DNA of 64,000 bases from an uncultured Candidatus Actinomarinales bacterium (GTDB taxonomy: Bacteria; Actinomycetota; Acidimicrobiia; Actinomarinales; Actinomarinaceae): positions 65,420-129,419 of the forward strand of contig CAXBVE010000001.1 in assembly GCA_963979435.1 (NCBI GenBank). The letters run 5' to 3'. Below the pieces are notes generated by a model. The model searched no databases and was not told the origin of the DNA. It worked only from the letters and a program-made list of their open reading frames with translations. The translations under genes and the position numbers were made by a program. This document shows positions 49,347 through 57,287 of this stretch, one piece after another (within the stretch, counting starts at the first letter, position 1; the number at the start of each line of letters is the position of its first letter).

Positions 49347-50381
49347 ATGAATATGAAAAAAGATGAATCTAGACAAGAATTATTAAATAGAGCATTTATT
49401 TATGTGCTATTTATTGGCATTTCAGTAATAATATTTCTAAGAGTTAAACCTTTACTCTTTGATCTTTTTGTAGCTGTAGTTTTAGCAGCATTGGCAGAAC
49501 CAGTTGTTTATAGACTTTCAAAGAAATTCGGTCGAAAGATATCTGCCCTCATTTCTGTCGCACTGTTACTTCTGGTAATATTTGGAATAATCTTTTCTCT
49601 TATTCCAATAATGGTTCAAGAAATTTACTATATCTCTACACAGTTGCCGACATATCTAGATAACCTTTTGGATTACTTCAACGGAGAAGGTTTTATAATA
49701 TCCAATCAGTCTCTAGATTTGGAATCACAATTTAGTACATTTATAAACACTTATGGAGGAACAGTTGGAGAAACAGTAGTTTTTGCTGGCCAAGGGGTTT
49801 TAAGTGCTTTTGGTCATTTCTTTATCATTTTCTTCTTTTCATTCTATTTGATTAGCGAAGGTGAACATTGGAGAGAAAATCTAAAGCAAAATATCACACC
49901 AAGATACTCAAATCTCATTGATCAAGTATGGACAATCGGAGTTTCTAAAGCTGGTGGATTTATTGTTGCAAGAGTAATTCTGGGAATACTTGCAAGTATT
50001 GTATTCACAATATCTTTTCTGGTGATTGGATTACCATCTGCTGTAGCTTTGGGTATTGCTGCAGGTGTTCTTTCTCAACTAATTCCCGTGATAGGAACAT
50101 TCCTAGGTGGAATTGTTCCAGTTCTAGCCTCCATATCACTTGGTGTTAACTATGTTCTTTATACCTTGATTGTTCTATCTGTATATCAGTTAATTGAAAA
50201 CTATTTCATAAGTCCAAAAGTTACACAGTCAACAATGGAGATTCATCCGGCTGTTGCAGTATTTTCAACTATATTTGGAGCTTATACTGTGGGCGCTGTT
50301 GGCGCCATCTTAGCATTGCCAGTTGCTGCAACTATTCAAGGTGTAGTGGGAACTATTATAGAGAATCAAAAAAATGAATAA
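49347..50381 (+). CDS. AI-2E family transporter (PerM/UPF0118)
   Basis: 8-TM architecture with the characteristic C-terminal LIPVIGTFLGGIVPVLAS segment. 344 aa. Confidence 0.65.
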   Translation: MNMKKDESRQELLNRAFIYVLFIGISVIIFLRVKPLLFDLFVAVVLAALAEPVVYRLSKKFGRKISALISVALLLLVIFGIIFSLIPIMVQEIYYISTQLPTYLDNLLDYFNGEGFIISNQSLDLESQFSTFINTYGGTVGETVVFAGQGVLSAFGHFFIIFFFSFYLISEGEHWRENLKQNITPRYSNLIDQVWTIGVSKAGGFIVARVILGILASIVFTISFLVIGLPSAVALGIAAGVLSQLIPVIGTFLGGIVPVLASISLGVNYVLYTLIVLSVYQLIENYFISPKVTQSTMEIHPAVAVFSTIFGAYTVGAVGAILALPVAATIQGVVGTIIENQKNE

Positions 50382-50667
50382 TTTTATAAATATACCTATT
50401 AATGCTGTGAAATCTATTGATAGTCTACTCCAACACTTTAAAGAGGAGACTGTTGATGAGGTGGAGAACTCAATAAAGTCGTTAAAAAGAAATTTCAAAG
50501 CTGGAAACTATCTAGCTCTAGCGACACTATTCATTATTATTGGTGTAGCGTCTATATTAAGTCAGATGTTTAGTGGAAACTATTTTTTACAAGCTATGAC
50601 ATATTTTTCTATGGCTCTATTATGCTTGATTTCATTCGGATTAATTATATGGAGAATATTAAAATGA
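50374..50667 (+). CDS. Hypothetical small membrane protein (97 aa, two C-terminal TM helices)
   Basis: Start overlaps the AI-2E stop (ATGAATAA). Soluble N-terminal half followed by two hydrophobic helices. Confidence 0.4.
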   Translation: MNNFINIPINAVKSIDSLLQHFKEETVDEVENSIKSLKRNFKAGNYLALATLFIIIGVASILSQMFSGNYFLQAMTYFSMALLCLISFGLIIWRILK

Positions 50668-50819
50668 CAGAATATAGAGAAACATATAATGAACTTAAGA
50701 AAAATATTAATTCAGAAAATTCAAAAGTCATTTCTTACCTTTTTTTTGGGATACTCGTTGGTCGAGCTTACGAAAAATATCGCAAGATAAAAAAATCAAT
50801 CCTAAAAAAGCGTTCATGA
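50664..50819 (+). CDS. Hypothetical small membrane protein (52 aa, one TM helix, basic tail)
   Basis: ATG 50664 with GGAG 9 nt upstream. ATGA overlap with the preceding ORF. Below the 60-aa cutoff of the ORF track (the track shows a longer out-of-context 65-aa version). Confidence 0.35.
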   Translation: MTEYRETYNELKKNINSENSKVISYLFFGILVGRAYEKYRKIKKSILKKRS

Positions 50820-50909: not shown

Positions 50910-51683
50910 GTGGAAATCGATAATAGACTAGTAATAATTTCATCTGAATCAAAAAAGTACTTAAGCGTAATAACAAAAGGCAAAGAATTCATAACTAATG
51001 ATGGCAAAATAGAATTTGATAAAATAAAATCCCTTCCTACTCAAATTGAATCATCAACCGGAAAAATATTTACAATTTATGTTCCATCTTATAAAGAATT
51101 TATTCTTCTTATGAAGAGAGGGCCTCAAATAATATATCCCAAAGATGTGGGTTCAATACTCATTTCAGGGAATATAAATTCAAATAGTAAAGTTTTGGAG
51201 ATTGGTACTGGGTCTGGAGCATTAACTCTTTTTCTAGCGTCAATTTTAGGTACTAATTCCAAATTTTATTCTTTAGATATCAGTAAAAAAAATCAATATC
51301 GAGCTAAAAAGACAATATCAAGATATTTATCTAATTATTCATCTGATTTTATAAATGATATTCAATTTATTAATACAGATCTGTCTGATTTTAAAATTGA
51401 TACCGTTCCTTTTAAATTTGATACTGTTATTACAGATGTCCCAGAACCATGGATATTCTTCGAAAACAATCATATAAATAGTAATCTTTACTGGGTTTCA
51501 TATTTACCCTCAATATCTCAAGTTTCTAAGTTAGCTGACGCTTTACAAGATAATAGCTTTAAAGATATTGAGATTAAAGAGACAATAGAGAGAGAGTGGA
51601 CGATACGAGGTAATATTTCAAGGCCAAAGCATACAATGGTTGGTCATACAGGGTTTATAGTTAGTGGAAGATATATTTTATGA
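50910..51683 (+). CDS. trmI: tRNA (adenine58-N1)-methyltransferase TrmI (Gcd14 family)
   Basis: RGPQIIYPKDVGSILISGNINSNSKVLEIGTGSGALTLFLA matches the TrmI core and SAM-binding motif I. GTG start. Confidence 0.75.
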   Translation: MEIDNRLVIISSESKKYLSVITKGKEFITNDGKIEFDKIKSLPTQIESSTGKIFTIYVPSYKEFILLMKRGPQIIYPKDVGSILISGNINSNSKVLEIGTGSGALTLFLASILGTNSKFYSLDISKKNQYRAKKTISRYLSNYSSDFINDIQFINTDLSDFKIDTVPFKFDTVITDVPEPWIFFENNHINSNLYWVSYLPSISQVSKLADALQDNSFKDIEIKETIEREWTIRGNISRPKHTMVGHTGFIVSGRYIL

Positions 51684-51684
51684 T

Positions 51685-51930
51685 TTATGGTTCAATCATT
51701 ATGCATTCGCCAGGACATTCCTCTGCCGATTCAACAACTGCATCTTCTTGACCTTTAGGAACAACAGCTAGGCCTTCAGCACCACCGACATTCCCATTTT
51801 CTTCTGAAAAAACTTTATCACCCTCTTTAACATAAAAAAGGCCATCATCTAATCCGACAAATACATCTGGTGCAATCTCTTCACAAAGGCCATCACCAGT
51901 ACATAAATCTTGATCAATCCATACTTTCAT
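51685..51930 (-). CDS. fdx: Small 3Fe-4S/4Fe-4S ferredoxin (actinobacterial Fdx type)
   Basis: CTGDGLCEEIAP ... ECPGECI cysteine pattern (C-x5-C ... C-P). 81 aa. Confidence 0.7.
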   Translation of the reverse strand: MKVWIDQDLCTGDGLCEEIAPDVFVGLDDGLFYVKEGDKVFSEENGNVGGAEGLAVVPKGQEDAVVESAEECPGECIMIEP

Positions 51931-52030: not shown

Positions 52031-52864
52031 ATGAAAAATGTATTTAAAAGGTGTTTAAAGTTAATCGCTCTTTTCGATAGCTCAAACACATTCAATCTCG
52101 ATAGTAATTACATAAAAGATAATATACCCGAGTATCGTAATTTGAATGATGCAGCGTACAAAAGATCTTTTGAGAGAGATAAAGCACTCCTAAAAGAGGT
52201 CGGGTTCAATTTAGAATATGAAAATGACAAATGGAGTGTTGAAGATGGTTATAAGCTTAAAGGAACAAATATAATTTTAGACTTACAAAGTAAATCTGGA
52301 TTTGACATTGAGAGGTTTATCAACACATATTCTGTTATTAAGAAATACTTATCACCATATTTACAACTCAATAAAGATTTAAAAGTTATACCAATACTCA
52401 ATACAGCCATAAAGGAGCGGAGAAGAGTTTCATTTATTTACAATGACAAACTAAGAAAAGTATATCCTTTAGGCCTGAGGTTCCATGCTGGAATGTGGTA
52501 CCTGGGAGCAGATGATGGAAAAATTGTTAAAACATTTAAAATAAACACTATAGAAAATCTAAAAATTGGTAACAAAGAGAATCTTCACACTAAAAATATT
52601 TCAGAATTTAACTTTTCATGGGAAAACATGTCAAGTCTTATTACGGTCGAGATAATTTCAGATAACGACTTACATAGAGTGCACAGTAGGATTTTCAATT
52701 TTACTGAGGTCTCTTCGAAGGAAAATGAAGAAAATATTACCATAAAATTAAAAACGAATGATCATCATGGCTTAATCAAGTATTTACTGTTGGTTGAGCC
52801 AAAATTACTAAATATAAATAAGCAAGACAAAGAGGCACTAAAGAGAGCTATAAATGGAATTTAA
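52031..52864 (+). CDS. pafB: PafB-like HTH-WYL domain transcriptional regulator
   Basis: N-terminal HTH-like region (…YKRSFERDKALLKEVGF…) and C-terminal WYL signature GMWYLGADDGKIVKTFKI. Occupies the pafB position upstream of tatA/tatC as in Mycobacterium. Confidence 0.6.
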   Translation: MKNVFKRCLKLIALFDSSNTFNLDSNYIKDNIPEYRNLNDAAYKRSFERDKALLKEVGFNLEYENDKWSVEDGYKLKGTNIILDLQSKSGFDIERFINTYSVIKKYLSPYLQLNKDLKVIPILNTAIKERRRVSFIYNDKLRKVYPLGLRFHAGMWYLGADDGKIVKTFKINTIENLKIGNKENLHTKNISEFNFSWENMSSLITVEIISDNDLHRVHSRIFNFTEVSSKENEENITIKLKTNDHHGLIKYLLLVEPKLLNINKQDKEALKRAINGI

Positions 52865-53675
52865 AATAAACCTAGGTAATATAATTCACATTCTTTCACT
52901 TATTAAAAAAGAAAAATCATTTAACTTAGAAGACTTAGCAGAAAATGTTAATTTAAGTTCCGACAAACTGTTGTATTCATTAACAATCTTATCGGAAGTG
53001 TACTCTTCAGATGGCGACAGCTTTATAAACTTTGAAGTAAATTTGGAAAAGAATGTCATTACCTTCGAGTTCAATGAATCTCTAGCAAGTATCCCTACAA
53101 TTACTGATCTAGACTTATTTAAAATATATACAGTTCTAAATAATCCTAAGATAAATGTTGAAAAGTTATTTGATAATAAGTCAGATCTTATTTACCTATA
53201 TAACACACTAAATAATTACTTTAAATCTCACCAAAGTGCAGCAAACAGTGCCAAACTTGACTTTAATAGAGTGTTTGTATCCGATGAACTGTATATAGAG
53301 TACATTAAATTAGGGCACAATATTTCAAATATCTATAAAATTAAGCCATTATCTTTCAATATTACAAATGATGGAGATGTTCTTGAAGCGTATGATTATG
53401 AAGACGACAAAATAAAAAGTTTTTTAATAGAAAGAATTGTTAACATTCCAGAGGAAAAAAGTCTTAAAGAAAGATTTTCAAAAAATGATAATGAGATTTC
53501 AGTTACCTATCAAGACCTAGCATTAAAAAGACATCAACAGCATTTCCGTTCAGAAGAAATAGCTGTAGAGCATTTCCTAAAGAATATAGATTCACAAAAT
53601 GTTATTGCTCCAAACTCCGTTAGAGTTGAAATTGAAAAAAGAAAAAATAAATTGATTGCTGAGTTTTTATCATGA
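52854..53675 (+). CDS. pafC: PafC-like WYL-domain regulator (paralogue partner of PafB)
   Basis: Same size class and tandem arrangement with the pafB-like gene (11-nt overlap). It is followed by tatA-tatC. WYL region is divergent. Confidence 0.5.
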   Translation: MEFKINLGNIIHILSLIKKEKSFNLEDLAENVNLSSDKLLYSLTILSEVYSSDGDSFINFEVNLEKNVITFEFNESLASIPTITDLDLFKIYTVLNNPKINVEKLFDNKSDLIYLYNTLNNYFKSHQSAANSAKLDFNRVFVSDELYIEYIKLGHNISNIYKIKPLSFNITNDGDVLEAYDYEDDKIKSFLIERIVNIPEEKSLKERFSKNDNEISVTYQDLALKRHQQHFRSEEIAVEHFLKNIDSQNVIAPNSVRVEIEKRKNKLIAEFLS

Positions 53676-53851
53676 GCATTATTGAATTACTAGTTATAGT
53701 CCTAATCTCTCTTGGTATATTTGATAAAAGCAAAATTTTATATTACTTTAATAAAATCTCTAAATTCCAAAATGGGCAAAGTCGCCAAATAATTGGAGAT
53801 AATTCAATTGATGAAAATTGGATCTGGCTAGATGAAAATGAGGAGGAATAA
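53672..53851 (+). CDS. tatA: Twin-arginine translocase subunit TatA (59 aa; not in ORF track)
   Basis: Manual translation gives MSIIELLVIVLISLGIFDKSKILYYFNKISKFQNGQSRQIIGDNSIDENWIWLDENEEE. An N-terminal TM helix is followed by a hinge and amphipathic basic helix. ATGA overlap with the pafC-like stop. It ends 1 nt before the tatC ATG and supplies GAGGAGGAA as the tatC RBS. Position matches pafC-tatA-tatC in Mycobacterium. Coordinates may be off by 1. Confidence 0.55.
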   Translation: MSIIELLVIVLISLGIFDKSKILYYFNKISKFQNGQSRQIIGDNSIDENWIWLDENEEE

Positions 53852-53852
53852 T

Positions 53853-54554
53853 ATGAAAAAACCATTCATGGAGCACCTTCAAGAGTTAAATAACAGAATA
53901 TTATTTTCTTTTACTTTAGTTGCGATAGTTGCAATATTTGTATATAACCAGTACTCATTTTTTGGTGATATTTTATTAGAACCTCTCATAAATGCTGGAT
54001 ATGATGACTCTAATATATTCGCATTAACAATCTATGAAGGTTTTCAAGTAAAGCTACAGAATACTTTTTGGATATCCATAATTATTACATTTCCATTAAT
54101 ACTTTTAATATTAGGTTATTTCGTTAAACCTGCTTTAGAGATAAGAACATTAAGCTTTTCGTTATATTTTATCTTCTTTACTCTCTTATTTTATTCAGGT
54201 ATATTTTCTTCACTAAGCATTGCTCATGTCGGTATTGAGTTCCTCCTTTCATTTAATGAGAATGAAATTATTCTAAGATCTCAAAACTATTTTCAATTCA
54301 TAACGAGAATTTCTTTGTTATTTGGAGTTTCATTTCAATTACCGTTAATCATGCTTTTTCTCCTTAACAAAGGAATAATAAAGGTAAAGAGCCTAACCAA
54401 TAAACGGGCTGAAATGTTTATAGTCATTCTTATTTTTTCAGCAGTAATAACACCAACGGGAGATCCTATTTCGCTTTTTATCTTCACTCTGCCTATGTAT
54501 TTACTCATAGAAATAATGATTTTTATTCATAAAAAAAGTAATCGTGAATTTTAA
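53853..54554 (+). CDS. tatC: Twin-arginine translocase subunit TatC
   Basis: N-terminus MKKPFMEHLQELNNRILFS matches the TatC start (M..eHL.ELR.R). Six TM helices. Start moved from the track's 53832 to ATG 53853, which is preceded by GAGGAGGAA. Confidence 0.8.
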   Translation: MKKPFMEHLQELNNRILFSFTLVAIVAIFVYNQYSFFGDILLEPLINAGYDDSNIFALTIYEGFQVKLQNTFWISIIITFPLILLILGYFVKPALEIRTLSFSLYFIFFTLLFYSGIFSSLSIAHVGIEFLLSFNENEIILRSQNYFQFITRISLLFGVSFQLPLIMLFLLNKGIIKVKSLTNKRAEMFIVILIFSAVITPTGDPISLFIFTLPMYLLIEIMIFIHKKSNREF

Positions 54555-56415
54555 TTTAGATAAATTTCAGGTTGAGGCAATTGACTCTATTAATAAAGAT
54601 TTTAATGTATTAGTCGTTGCACCTACGGGATCAGGAAAAACCTATATAGCCGAAAAAGCTATTGAAAAATATACTAACCAAAACCAAAATGTAATTTATA
54701 CGACACCCATTAAAGCATTATCGAATCAAAAATATAATGATTTCACAAATTTGAACATTGATACTGGATTGCTCACAGGAGACAGGACCATCAGCCCAGA
54801 TTCAAATCTAATTGTTGCCACTACAGAAATATTAAGAAATATGATTTATTCAGATGACAAAAGATTAAAAAAAATTGGACTCATAGTCCTTGATGAAGTT
54901 CACTATCTATCTGATTCCGAGCGAGGCACAACTTGGGAAGAAATAATTATTCATGCCCCAAAAAACATTAAGTTTCTTTTTCTATCAGCCACTATTAGAA
55001 ATAAAGAAGAATTCCATAACTGGATAGTTTCATTAAGAGGAAAAACATCATTGGTGTACTCCAATATAAGGCCCGTCCCACTAGAAATATCGTTAGTTGG
55101 TTTAAACCCTCACAGTGAGCAATTAAAAATAATTAAATCTTCAAAAGATAAGCGTAATAATAAAATTTTTAAATTTGAAAAACAATATAGAAAGTACAAG
55201 AGACCTCATCTAGGCTTTCAACTTGACTACCTCGAAAGTAAAAATCTTACACCTTCAATATTTTTTTATTTTTCAAGAGATAGAGTTGAAACAAAGGCTA
55301 GACAGGCAGCGACAAATAGAAATAAAATTAAAAAAGCAAATGAGATTAAAGATGTTTTTAATGATGTTTTTAGTTCTCTAGATTCAACTCAATATGATCT
55401 CTTAAATTTGGATGAACTATTGTGGATGTGGGTAAGAGGAATCGGATATCATCATGCAGGGCTTGCACCTATTGTAAAAGAATTTATTGAATTTTTATTT
55501 CTAAATAGATATATAAAATATTTATTTGCCACAGAAACACTATCACTTGGTCTCAATCTACCTGCGAAATCTATTGTTATCGATAGACTTTACAAATACG
55601 ATGGAATAAAAACACGATTAATCAATCAATCAGAATTTCTACAATTGACTGGGAGAGCAGGAAGGAGAGGGATTGATACAAAGGGATTTGCATTTATTAA
55701 TTATGACAGAAATATTGAAAACTTTTGGTATAACAACTTGTTTACCCTCAAATCAAGTAATTTAAATTCTGCATATTCGGTCTCGTATTCTTCAATATTG
55801 AATATGTTAAGCAAATACTCACTAAAGCAAGCCATAGAACTCCTTGAAAAAAGTTTCTTTTCTTATCAAAATAACTTCAATATCAAAAAGCTTCAAAATA
55901 CATTTACATCCAAGCTCGAAGTCCTTGAGTTGTTAAATTTCAAGAATGACAATAAGAAATCCATGGTTTTAACCGAAACCTATAGGGATAATCTAATCGT
56001 CGGACTTGAATTACTAGAGAGTGATTTTGATAAAGATATGAATTTCTACTTGATGCTTGTATGCTCTGGTTTATCCACAACCAGGCATGACTTGTCCCTT
56101 AATGAGTTGTATGTGGATACATTCATTAAATTTCAAATTATGGAGGAAAAGATTAATAAGATGGAATCATTTGCAGGGGTCAAAAAAATAACTTCAATTG
56201 AAATTGGTTGGTTCAGTATTTTTAATGAATATTTGCAATCTGAAGACGTTGAATCAGTATTATCTAAATTCAATATCAGTATCGGTGATTTTATTCGTGC
56301 TGGTAAGGAAGCTTCTGAACTCTCAACTAAACTCTTTAATATATATCGTATTAAGGAATTTAAAATGATTACTGATATTTTTAATGATGAGTTAATCCAG
56401 AAATCTATGCGATGA
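54544..56415 (+). CDS. helY: DEAD/DEAH-box (Ski2-like, HelY-type) helicase, short form
   Basis: Walker A VVAPTGSGKT, DEVH box (LDEVHYL), SAT (LSAT) and motif VI QLTGRAGRRG. GTG start overlapping the tatC end. Matches the tatC-helY order of Mycobacterium. Confidence 0.75.
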   Translation: MNFNLDKFQVEAIDSINKDFNVLVVAPTGSGKTYIAEKAIEKYTNQNQNVIYTTPIKALSNQKYNDFTNLNIDTGLLTGDRTISPDSNLIVATTEILRNMIYSDDKRLKKIGLIVLDEVHYLSDSERGTTWEEIIIHAPKNIKFLFLSATIRNKEEFHNWIVSLRGKTSLVYSNIRPVPLEISLVGLNPHSEQLKIIKSSKDKRNNKIFKFEKQYRKYKRPHLGFQLDYLESKNLTPSIFFYFSRDRVETKARQAATNRNKIKKANEIKDVFNDVFSSLDSTQYDLLNLDELLWMWVRGIGYHHAGLAPIVKEFIEFLFLNRYIKYLFATETLSLGLNLPAKSIVIDRLYKYDGIKTRLINQSEFLQLTGRAGRRGIDTKGFAFINYDRNIENFWYNNLFTLKSSNLNSAYSVSYSSILNMLSKYSLKQAIELLEKSFFSYQNNFNIKKLQNTFTSKLEVLELLNFKNDNKKSMVLTETYRDNLIVGLELLESDFDKDMNFYLMLVCSGLSTTRHDLSLNELYVDTFIKFQIMEEKINKMESFAGVKKITSIEIGWFSIFNEYLQSEDVESVLSKFNISIGDFIRAGKEASELSTKLFNIYRIKEFKMITDIFNDELIQKSMR

Positions 56416-57287
56416 AAGAATATGTTGTAGTTTATAACCTAAATTCTAGAGGTAAAAAATTAACCGAAAGCTACTTGACCACACTTTTTGAAAAGCATAA
56501 TTTGAAATCCAAAATCTTTATGACTTCTGATGTTTCAGAAGTTGATCAAATAATAGAACAGCATAAGGACAGTAAAAAATATAGTTATTGTGCAATTGGG
56601 GGAGATGGCACTATTAATTCTTTGATAGATAGTCTTCTAAGAAAAGGTCTAGACCGTCCTATTGTAGGATGTCTTCCATCAGGTAGTGGTTCTGATTTTT
56701 TAAGAACTTTTGCAATCCCTCAAAATATAGAAACCGCAATAGAACACCTCAAAGGAGATTCTACCTACCTTATTGACACAGCAATTGTGTCCACTTCCGA
56801 AAAAGAAAGACATTTTGTTAATATTTTAAACTTTGGTTTTCTTGCTGATACAGTTGAAATGAGTGAAAAATTACCAAAGATTTTTAGAAGATTTAGATAC
56901 CCGATTAGCTTCTGGCTAAAGCTACTTCCTGCTAGGTCTGGAATGATGTCTATTAAAACACACAACTATGAATTTAATGCCGATGCCTTCGTTATTACTG
57001 TATGTAATGGTCAGTTTTTTGGAGGTGGCTGGAATATATCACCTAAATCCAGTCTTCAAGATGGTCTACTTAATATTCAAATTTTTAAAGTAACAAAAAA
57101 GAAAGCTATGAAATTATTTTTTCTAGCAAAGAAGGGTTTACATTTAACAGAACCAGATGTTCTTTTAAAAAGAAGTGGAGAGATACAGCTTTTATCACGT
57201 CAATCAATAGAAATTGATGGTGATTATTTCGATAAGGGACCAGCTGAGATATTTGTTAAAAAAGCTTCCATACAGCTAAAAATTTAG
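56412..57287 (+). CDS. Diacylglycerol kinase catalytic-domain lipid kinase (YegS/DagK family)
   Basis: DAGK_cat motif AIGGDGTINSL. About 290 aa. Confidence 0.6.
   Translation: MKEYVVVYNLNSRGKKLTESYLTTLFEKHNLKSKIFMTSDVSEVDQIIEQHKDSKKYSYCAIGGDGTINSLIDSLLRKGLDRPIVGCLPSGSGSDFLRTFAIPQNIETAIEHLKGDSTYLIDTAIVSTSEKERHFVNILNFGFLADTVEMSEKLPKIFRRFRYPISFWLKLLPARSGMMSIKTHNYEFNADAFVITVCNGQFFGGGWNISPKSSLQDGLLNIQIFKVTKKKAMKLFFLAKKGLHLTEPDVLLKRSGEIQLLSRQSIEIDGDYFDKGPAEIFVKKASIQLKI

Follow-up and report, generated by a model that had tools for sequence, protein, structure and literature searches.

Which protein partners TatC in the Actinomarinales? Actinomarinales are among the most abundant marine actinobacteria, and standard annotation would leave their streamlined ~ 1 Mb genomes with a TatC and without a TatA, so that the twin-arginine (Tat) pathway would look broken or puzzling. 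The question was addressed in a 64,000 nt stretch of an uncultured Candidatus Actinomarinales genome (contig CAXBVE010000001.1, positions 65,420 to 129,419; guanine-plus-cytosine (GC) content 32%, genome size 1.02 Mb), hereafter referred to as the window, in which an open reading frame (ORF) of 59 codons lies between a pafC-like gene and tatC. We estimate a probability of roughly 80% that the Actinomarinales TatC works with the product of this small gene, a TatA/B-type protein which has diverged strongly from the glutamate-type TatA/B that other Actinobacteria encode in the interval from pafC to tatC.

The small gene, founding member of an Actinomarinales-wide, putatively TatA/B-like family, extends from position 53672 to 53851 on the forward strand (ATG start, TAA stop at 53849–53851) and encodes a product of 59 amino acids (aa), MSIIELLVIVLISLGIFDKSKILYYFNKISKFQNGQSRQIIGDNSIDENWIWLDENEEE, which contains the tryptic peptides ILYYFNK and QIIGDNSIDENWIWLDENEEE. 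Direct translation confirmed the ORF that an initial annotation of the window had read from the ATG at 53672; the end coordinate given there, 53853, turned out to be the A of the tatC start codon. Both junctions are built as first described. The ATG (53672–53674) overlaps the TGA (53673–53675) of the 273-aa upstream gene in an ATGA start/stop overlap (53672–53675, forward strand), which recurs in loci L004, L005 and L006, and the Glu codons of the small-gene tail contain GAGGAGG (53840–53846), placing a Shine-Dalgarno sequence 6 nt 5′ of the tatC ATG at 53853, only 1 nt after the small-gene stop. The 59-aa ORF with its ATGA overlap and EEE/Shine-Dalgarno end was found in three other genera (TatC 77–81% identical). 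The upstream overlap gives way to a gap of 10–11 nt in more distant lineages, and spacers of 13–16 nt separate the small gene from tatC in others, so the tight coupling claimed for both ends holds in the window and is not universal. Likewise, the gene is unannotated as regards the ORF track, from which genes shorter than 60 aa drop out, and some public records do carry it as a ‘hypothetical protein’.

A short ORF below the 60-aa track limit, in a genome of 32% GC, might be a chance product of AT-rich DNA. Against this explanation, nucleotide differences in pairwise comparisons between genera were concentrated at the third codon position (11/4/24, 17/11/33 and 14/9/36 at positions 1/2/3), length and frame were kept in 44 of 44 informative loci of the survey described below, and gene callers of several sources do predict the gene. 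The comparative data already refute chance origin, to which we assign a negligible probability. On the strength of the third-position bias, the conserved length and 298 database clusters, these sequence comparisons indicate that the 59-aa ORF is a genuine, selected and conserved gene.

A search with the single sequence returned 20 close relatives, all ‘hypothetical protein’ or unnamed and without a Pfam domain. A profile built from a narrow alignment and run against 1.84 billion representatives gave 17 matches at E < 0.001, all belonging to the same family, and this full-library search produced no bridge to canonical TatA. The 298 clusters (90% identity) were recovered with a broader profile, one cluster alone being present on 739 contigs; among the 120 matches listed from this search, all were family members and every named one was ‘hypothetical’. 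The sources searched held no other name and no recorded Pfam domain for the family, and no paper linking Actinomarinales with Tat was found in the literature. Five database members (P0152, P0153, P0148, P0017 and P0019) have C-termini unrelated to the family and seem to come from metagenome contigs that are chimeric or carry frameshifts, rather than to be true variants; the end of P0152, CLLYTSPSPRDDR, is presumably translated sequencing-adaptor sequence.

Family proteins are 54–62 aa long and share the signature MS..E[LF]..I..I[SA][LI]GI.[D/P][KN].[KRQ][LIV], followed by ~ 15 residues, R..IGD.S[ILV].[EQ].W.W[ILV] and an acidic tail. Ten columns (M1, E5, I9, G15, R38, G42, D43, S45, W50 and W52) were invariant in 41 family sequences. 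These data bear on a second possibility, namely that the ORF is a regulatory upstream reading frame whose translation itself delivers ribosomes to tatC, the peptide being functionless. The stop-start distance of 1 nt and the tatC Shine-Dalgarno sequence inside the last codons would suit such a role. However, amino-acid conservation spans the whole length of the protein in lineages down to 32–45% identity, with conservative substitutions and the ten invariant columns; the codon of the invariant Ser45 is TCA, TCC or AGT, i.e. it has changed between the TCN and AGY families with the amino acid kept; and lineages with 13–16 nt spacers retain the peptide. We therefore regard a purely regulatory ORF as very improbable.

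Gene order was surveyed in 80 metagenome loci of ~ 12 kb (L020–L099), fetched with the helicase downstream of tatC as anchor, at helicase identities between 100% and 34%. Three home-built hidden Markov models (HMMs), representing TatC, eight Pfam-validated or textbook TatA/B/E proteins, and the small-gene family, served to score the ORFs of all six frames. Among 50 low-GC loci of the Actinomarinales type (24–31% GC), 44 contained the whole of tatC together with sequence upstream of it; in every one of these the small-gene family was found directly 5′ of tatC-helY, starting with GTG in six of them, and canonical TatA in none of the 44. The remaining six were cut by contig ends or, in one case, rearranged: L062 (positions 1–770) carries only the last 85 TatC residues before the helicase, and ahead of them stands a 196-aa ORF segment that is unrelated; the contig was either rearranged or assembled as a chimera. 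In the higher-GC loci (45–74% GC) with tatC before the helicase the picture was reversed, with canonical TatA/B directly 5′ of tatC in 23 of 25 (E = 1e-8 to 1e-18 with the reference HMM) and the small-gene family in none. The four higher-GC TatA/B proteins checked matched PF02416 with 31–71 bits, and four upstream genes were confirmed as encoding PafC (HTH_PafC and WYL in 4/4, WCX in 3/4).

The survey makes the small ORF the positional equivalent of tatA, mutually exclusive with canonical TatA. It adjoins tatC in the order pafC-tatA-tatC-helY, within the actinobacterial cluster pafB-pafC-tatA-tatC-helY, and the initial reading of this position, likened there to pafC-tatA-tatC of Mycobacterium, is upheld by the higher-GC loci, which run PafC, TatA (PF02416), TatC, helicase. 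The genes deoR, pafC, tatA, tatC and DEAD/DEAH helicase are also named together in the legend of a figure of the Rhodococcus proteasome cluster (PMC6498646). Around four diverged family members the order, as far as the contigs reach, was GCD14, ferredoxin, WYL, pafC-like, small ORF, TatC and DEAD helicase, with no PF02416 gene in the flanks (≤ 10 kb). A regular expression and a home-made TatA HMM, applied to six-frame ORFs of the 64 kb window and of all Actinomarinales loci fetched, likewise detected no canonical TatA.

Four higher-GC loci carry an extra ORF segment of ~ 130–200 aa between pafC and tatA (L077:4297–4779, L083:4518–4946, L098:2226–2609 and L084:4042–4662, all on the forward strand) with the motif CPxCG...QRRPANHRVVSILLATGV.Y; in the window, no equivalent separates the pafC-like gene from the small ORF.

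The architecture of the 59-aa protein is that of TatA, TatB and TatE, with a single short N-terminal transmembrane (TM) helix followed by a basic amphipathic helix. Residues 3–17 (53678–53722, forward strand) form the predicted hydrophobic TM helix, which begins with the invariant Glu5, continues with exactly 12 hydrophobic or small residues (L6–F17) and includes the invariant Gly15; its mean hydrophobicity over these 15 residues, 0.94, was comparable to that of reference TatAs. Tat TM helices of 15 residues have been described (PMC9207671). Q8 of Escherichia coli TatA and the glutamate of the syntenic TatA/B proteins align with Glu5, the polar residue at the N-terminal end, and the 12 residues between Glu5 and Asp18 reproduce the Q8-to-G21 spacing of E. 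coli TatA. The combination of a polar residue with 12 hydrophobic residues is considered important for membrane weakening (2026 review, PMC13186574), and an invariant Glu close to where the TM helix begins is a feature shared with TatB (E8; PMC5201420) and with Tha4/Hcf106 (Tha4 E10; PMC12609122).

The basic amphipathic helix is predicted to span residues 19–38 (53726–53785, forward strand; K19, K21, K28, K31 and R38). For residues 21–38 the hydrophobic moment was 0.40–0.41 and the net charge +4, to be compared with moments of 0.44 for E. coli TatA and 0.44–0.69 for reference TatAs. AlphaFold2 predicted a helix at residues 3–16, a break at 17–18 and a second helix at 19–40 from a shallow alignment (predicted local distance difference test score, pLDDT, 60), and helix 3–13, break 14–18 and helix 19–33 from 41 sequences (pLDDT 69). 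Hydrophobicity, hydrophobic moment and the helix-break-helix models thus bear out the TatA/E architecture which had been proposed from the translation by eye. The remainder of the protein consists of a family-specific motif, R..IGD.S[IL].E.W.W[ILV] (residues 38–53; 53783–53830, forward strand), in which R38, G42, D43, S45, W50 and W52 were invariant in the 41 sequences, and of the acidic tail DENEEE (53831–53848, forward strand), whose EEE end is conserved family-wide and whose last codons provide the tatC Shine-Dalgarno sequence. In the analysis of the architecture the tail had a net charge of −8.

In the break between the helices, the residue aligned with the TatA hinge Gly is Asp18 (53723–53725, forward strand; hhalign register). 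Most members have Asp at this position, and P0146, P0149 and P0150 have Pro. The initial annotation had read the usual hinge Gly-FG in LGIF; the best alignment instead pairs the hinge Gly with Asp18 and has the invariant Gly15 three residues ahead of it. Gly15 as ancestral hinge was also considered and rejected as less parsimonious, with Glu5 and the K-L pair falling out of register. The accompanying remark that a canonical FGxKKLP is lacking proved accurate, Asp or Pro occupying the hinge and the Pro of KLP being absent.

Signals of relationship to TatA/B came from two sources other than position and architecture. Among 18,950 NCBIfam models, TatB_Rickett was the only recurrent family, matching weakly in 7 of 12 members (best E = 0.014, ~ 13 bits vs a cut-off of 75); since the 12 members are mutually related, these matches count as one family-level observation. 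None of ten block-shuffled controls gave a Tat match (three unrelated weak matches appeared among them), and the TatB_Rickett signal depends on residue order, not on composition. Profile-profile comparison with hhalign was controlled by shuffles in which no alignment column left its own block (helix, amphipathic or tail), which preserved the architecture. Against the eight reference TatA/B/E proteins the family profile gave P = 0.001–0.002, with 14 of 200 shuffles reaching the observed score; against 19 syntenic TatA/B proteins, P = 2.3e-4 (9/300 shuffles); and against the 14 syntenic TatA/B of the glutamate type, P = 1.1e-4 with a probability of 57% (1/300 shuffles). All three alignments settled in one register, pairing E5 with Q8/E, F17 with F, D18 with the hinge G, K21 with K (K/R in the glutamate-type set) and I/L22 with L. 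The NCBIfam and hhalign signals, weaker than a family match, all lean, at the level of sequence, towards a remote relationship to TatA/B. A profile search against PDB sequences yielded only the V-ATPase c-subunit (E = 0.46), which was dismissed as a chance match.

One of the closest likenesses was to the glutamate-type TatA/B proteins of other Actinobacteria (e.g. L095: MFNVGGGELLVILLIALIVLGPQKLPEAAK...), which occupy the same slot, pafC-X-tatC-helY. Shared with them are the TM Glu 13 residues ahead of the hinge position, the K/R-L after the hinge, the basic amphipathic helix that follows and, by eye, 9 of 19 identical residues over ELLVI..L..K. The small-gene protein differs in having D-K (or P-N/K) at the hinge instead of G-P, no L-P after K, a new Gly15 and the new invariant IGD.S..E.W.W; it is also far shorter (54–62 aa in the family, compared with inter-stop reading frames of ~ 90–200 aa) and undetected by PF02416, with which the glutamate-type proteins score 31–39 bits.

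Several observations weigh against a TatA/B identity and have to be set beside these likenesses. The search with the TatA_B_E model PF02416 (mttA/Hcf106), put forward initially as the check on the 59-aa peptide, failed: neither the window protein nor any of 12 diverse members matched at E ≤ 10, while canonical TatAs scored 31–89 bits. NCBIfam tatAE (TIGR01411) reached E = 0.66 in one member only. The shuffle control was weaker with the two broader reference sets (14/200 and 9/300), and the best hhalign figure has to be discounted about threefold because three reference sets were tried. The hinge Gly, invariant in the compared TatA/B sequences, is replaced by Asp or Pro in the small-gene family; of the x-K-L-P that should follow it, K21 and I/L22 match K-L behind a nearly invariant Asp18 (or Pro), with no Pro at the end. 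A further difference from TatA is the shorter amphipathic helix. An F-K motif, regarded as important in that helix (PMC13186574), occurs only in a 61-aa subgroup (TFKNIQNGP), the window protein having K-F and the other members neither. Conservation is strongest in the C-terminal motif R..IGD.S..E.W.W, absent from the 27 reference or syntenic TatA/B proteins compared. The search for a canonical TatA covered the 64 kb window, out of a genome of 1.02 Mb, and the ~ 12 kb loci, and a canonical tatA or tatB may lie elsewhere in the genome. Finally, position alone is not proof, as one of the two exceptions among the 25 higher-GC loci illustrates. While L091 is merely cut at the contig start, L081 (contig Ga0207647_10021455, 71% GC) has in its pafC-tatC gap a 71-aa membrane ORF segment (L081:347–559, forward strand; AGRVPVALIAWIAALAFAAVVLAFCSYEVHWKARRLRADLERLRQLGDELRR...) with one TM helix and a charged helix, to which the reference TatA HMM gave no match; here, too, and independently, the tatA slot may have come to encode a small protein of non-standard type. 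By the operational definition (HMM, hinge Gly and FK motif), the 59-aa protein is not a member of TatA, TatB or TatE.

The alternative to which these points lend most weight is that an unrelated small membrane protein, either a Tat accessory or one working independently of Tat, displaced tatA, with the true TatA/TatB encoded elsewhere in the genome. The missing PF02416 match, hinge Gly and FK motif would fit such a protein, as would the concentration of conservation in a motif absent from the TatA/B sequences compared, the precedent of L081 and the restricted extent of the TatA search. Against it stand the in-register profile match to syntenic TatA/B, equalled by only 1 of 300 architecture-preserving shuffles, and the fact that the only recurrent NCBIfam match was a Tat model, absent from the shuffled controls. 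The spacing from polar residue to hinge is exactly that of TatA, the distribution is strictly complementary to that of canonical TatA in 67 loci, and neither the window nor any fetched Actinomarinales locus contains a canonical TatA. On balance we consider displacement by an unrelated protein improbable, and favour the diverged TatA/B-type partner: judging by architecture and position, the 59-aa protein probably works in a TatA-like manner, and descent from a TatA is probable as well.

A related and bolder proposition concerns how far the protein has departed from TatA. Hinge glycine, KLP, FK motif and full-length amphipathic helix are thought essential in TatA. A Tat partner without any of these, and with an invariant Trp-containing C-terminal module, would amount to extreme remodelling or to a non-homologous replacement of TatA, an outcome that we hold to be doubtful. 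If true, either case would imply a minimal Tat system with a mechanism of its own, and would offer a natural experiment on the features that TatA really needs.

Among known systems, the minimal TatAC systems of Bacillus subtilis also place a small protein (TatAd/TatAy, 57–70 aa) beside tatC, and their motif IFGPSKL is resembled by IF-x-x-SK-[IL] of the small-gene family. Unlike the 59-aa protein, TatAd and TatAy possess the FGP hinge, KLP and FK motif, score 83–89 bits with PF02416 and start their helix with P-G or another polar residue, not Glu. No tatB-like gene was present in the neighbourhood, so the 59-aa protein could plausibly fill both TatA and TatB roles and, by analogy with minimal TatAC systems, may be the sole, bifunctional TatA/B-type subunit. 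As for TatB, Tha4/Hcf106 and TatB_Rickett, the last a model from another AT-rich lineage with its weak recurrent match, the small-gene protein scores far below the cut-off (13 bits against 75), has no G-P hinge and has an unrelated C-terminus.

A working scheme for a diverged TatA/B-type partner can be proposed on this basis. The small gene would be transcribed on one mRNA with the pafC-like gene and tatC and translated via the ATGA overlap, with the Shine-Dalgarno sequence inside its own end serving tatC. The protein would insert into the membrane by its short N-out TM helix, Glu5 plus 12 hydrophobic residues, bend at Gly15–Asp18 and rest its basic amphipathic helix against the cytoplasmic side of the membrane. 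The docking point of Glu5 might be the polar, conserved TM5 site of TatC (TPTGDP-x-S/T). Thinning of the membrane by short-helix oligomers would let folded twin-arginine substrates through, as proposed for TatA. IGD.S..E.W.W and the acidic tail would be a lineage-specific addition, perhaps an interfacial anchor or a substitute for the shortened amphipathic helix and the FK motif.

The putative docking partner, tatC (53853–54554, forward strand; 233 aa; Pfam TatC 134 bits, E = 7e-39), begins further downstream than in the ORF track. The relocation of its start from 53832 to 53853, already suggested by the initial annotation, was borne out by start conservation: MKKPF is the sole possible start of the tatC ORF in L006, the start codon at that position is TTG in L004, and L005 has no in-frame ATG at the position equivalent to 53832. 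Among the 120 matches listed in a search for TatC homologues all were 97–100% identical, and many database entries already have the 233-aa form. The window TatC matched E. coli TatC structures 9dzz and 9r91 (E ~ 4e-16), with its T200 aligned to T208, a residue of the polar cluster which binds TatA/B in E. coli (PMC5201420). The tatC gene is intact and conserved. The TM5 motif TP[ST]GDP.[ST]L is common to Actinomarinales TatC and to higher-GC relatives with canonical glutamate-type TatA/B, and the docking site of TatC therefore appears unchanged.

Recognition of the family corrects the annotation of a gene present on hundreds of ocean metagenome contigs. For Tat research it also offers a natural variant in which the polar residue and 12-residue rule are kept, the hinge glycine and FK motif are gone and a new conserved tail has been added, making the roles of these elements testable.

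The genes around the small gene were also characterised. Upstream of it lie a pafB-like WYL-domain gene (52031–52864, forward strand; 277 aa; Pfam WYL E = 4e-10) and the pafC-like gene (52854–53675, forward strand; 273 aa), named by position only, as it takes the place of PafC (HTH_PafC+WYL+WCX) in the higher-GC loci; Pfam returned no significant family for its product, and none of HTH_PafC, WYL or WCX. Positional counterparts in higher-GC loci score 78–141 bits with HTH_PafC; the window pafC-like protein gives no such match and the pafB-like protein matches WYL only. Downstream of tatC is a HelY/Ski2-like DEAD-box helicase gene with a GTG start (54544–56415, forward strand; Pfam DEAD and Helicase_C, NCBIfam Hel308-like). 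In the chain from 52031 to 57287 (forward strand), the pafB-like and pafC-like genes overlap by 11 nt, the pafC-like gene and the small ORF by 4 nt, tatC and the helicase gene by 11 nt, and the helicase gene and a diacylglycerol-kinase-like gene by 4 nt (56412–56415). Together with the 1 nt gap before tatC, these chained overlaps suggest a single operon of six translationally linked genes.

Further upstream are a trmI-like methyltransferase gene (50910–51683, forward strand) and a gene for an 81-aa 4Fe-4S ferredoxin (51685–51930, reverse strand). The ferredoxin is the only gene between trmI and pafB in the window, with no pup, proteasome or pafA gene, and the PafBC pair seems to have been retained in very diverged form without neighbouring Pup-proteasome genes. 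The ferredoxin protein is nearly invariant (0–1 substitutions, ambiguous bases aside) across genera whose TatC proteins are 77–81% identical. Its gene has 40% GC vs ~ 28–30% in the neighbours; with GC at third codon positions of only 18%, this excess is attributable to amino-acid composition and not to foreign origin.

A scan of window ORFs for twin-arginine motifs gave nothing convincing. Small ORFs that overlap one another occupy the stretch from the gene for an AI-2E-type transporter to trmI (50374–50819, forward strand): a 97-aa membrane-like ORF (50374–50667) is followed by one of 59–65 aa. A counterpart was present at L018:1643–2192, and genes of 97, 59 and 29 aa are called at the corresponding place in related contigs; these ORFs, too, could be conserved small genes that a 60-aa cut-off overlooks.

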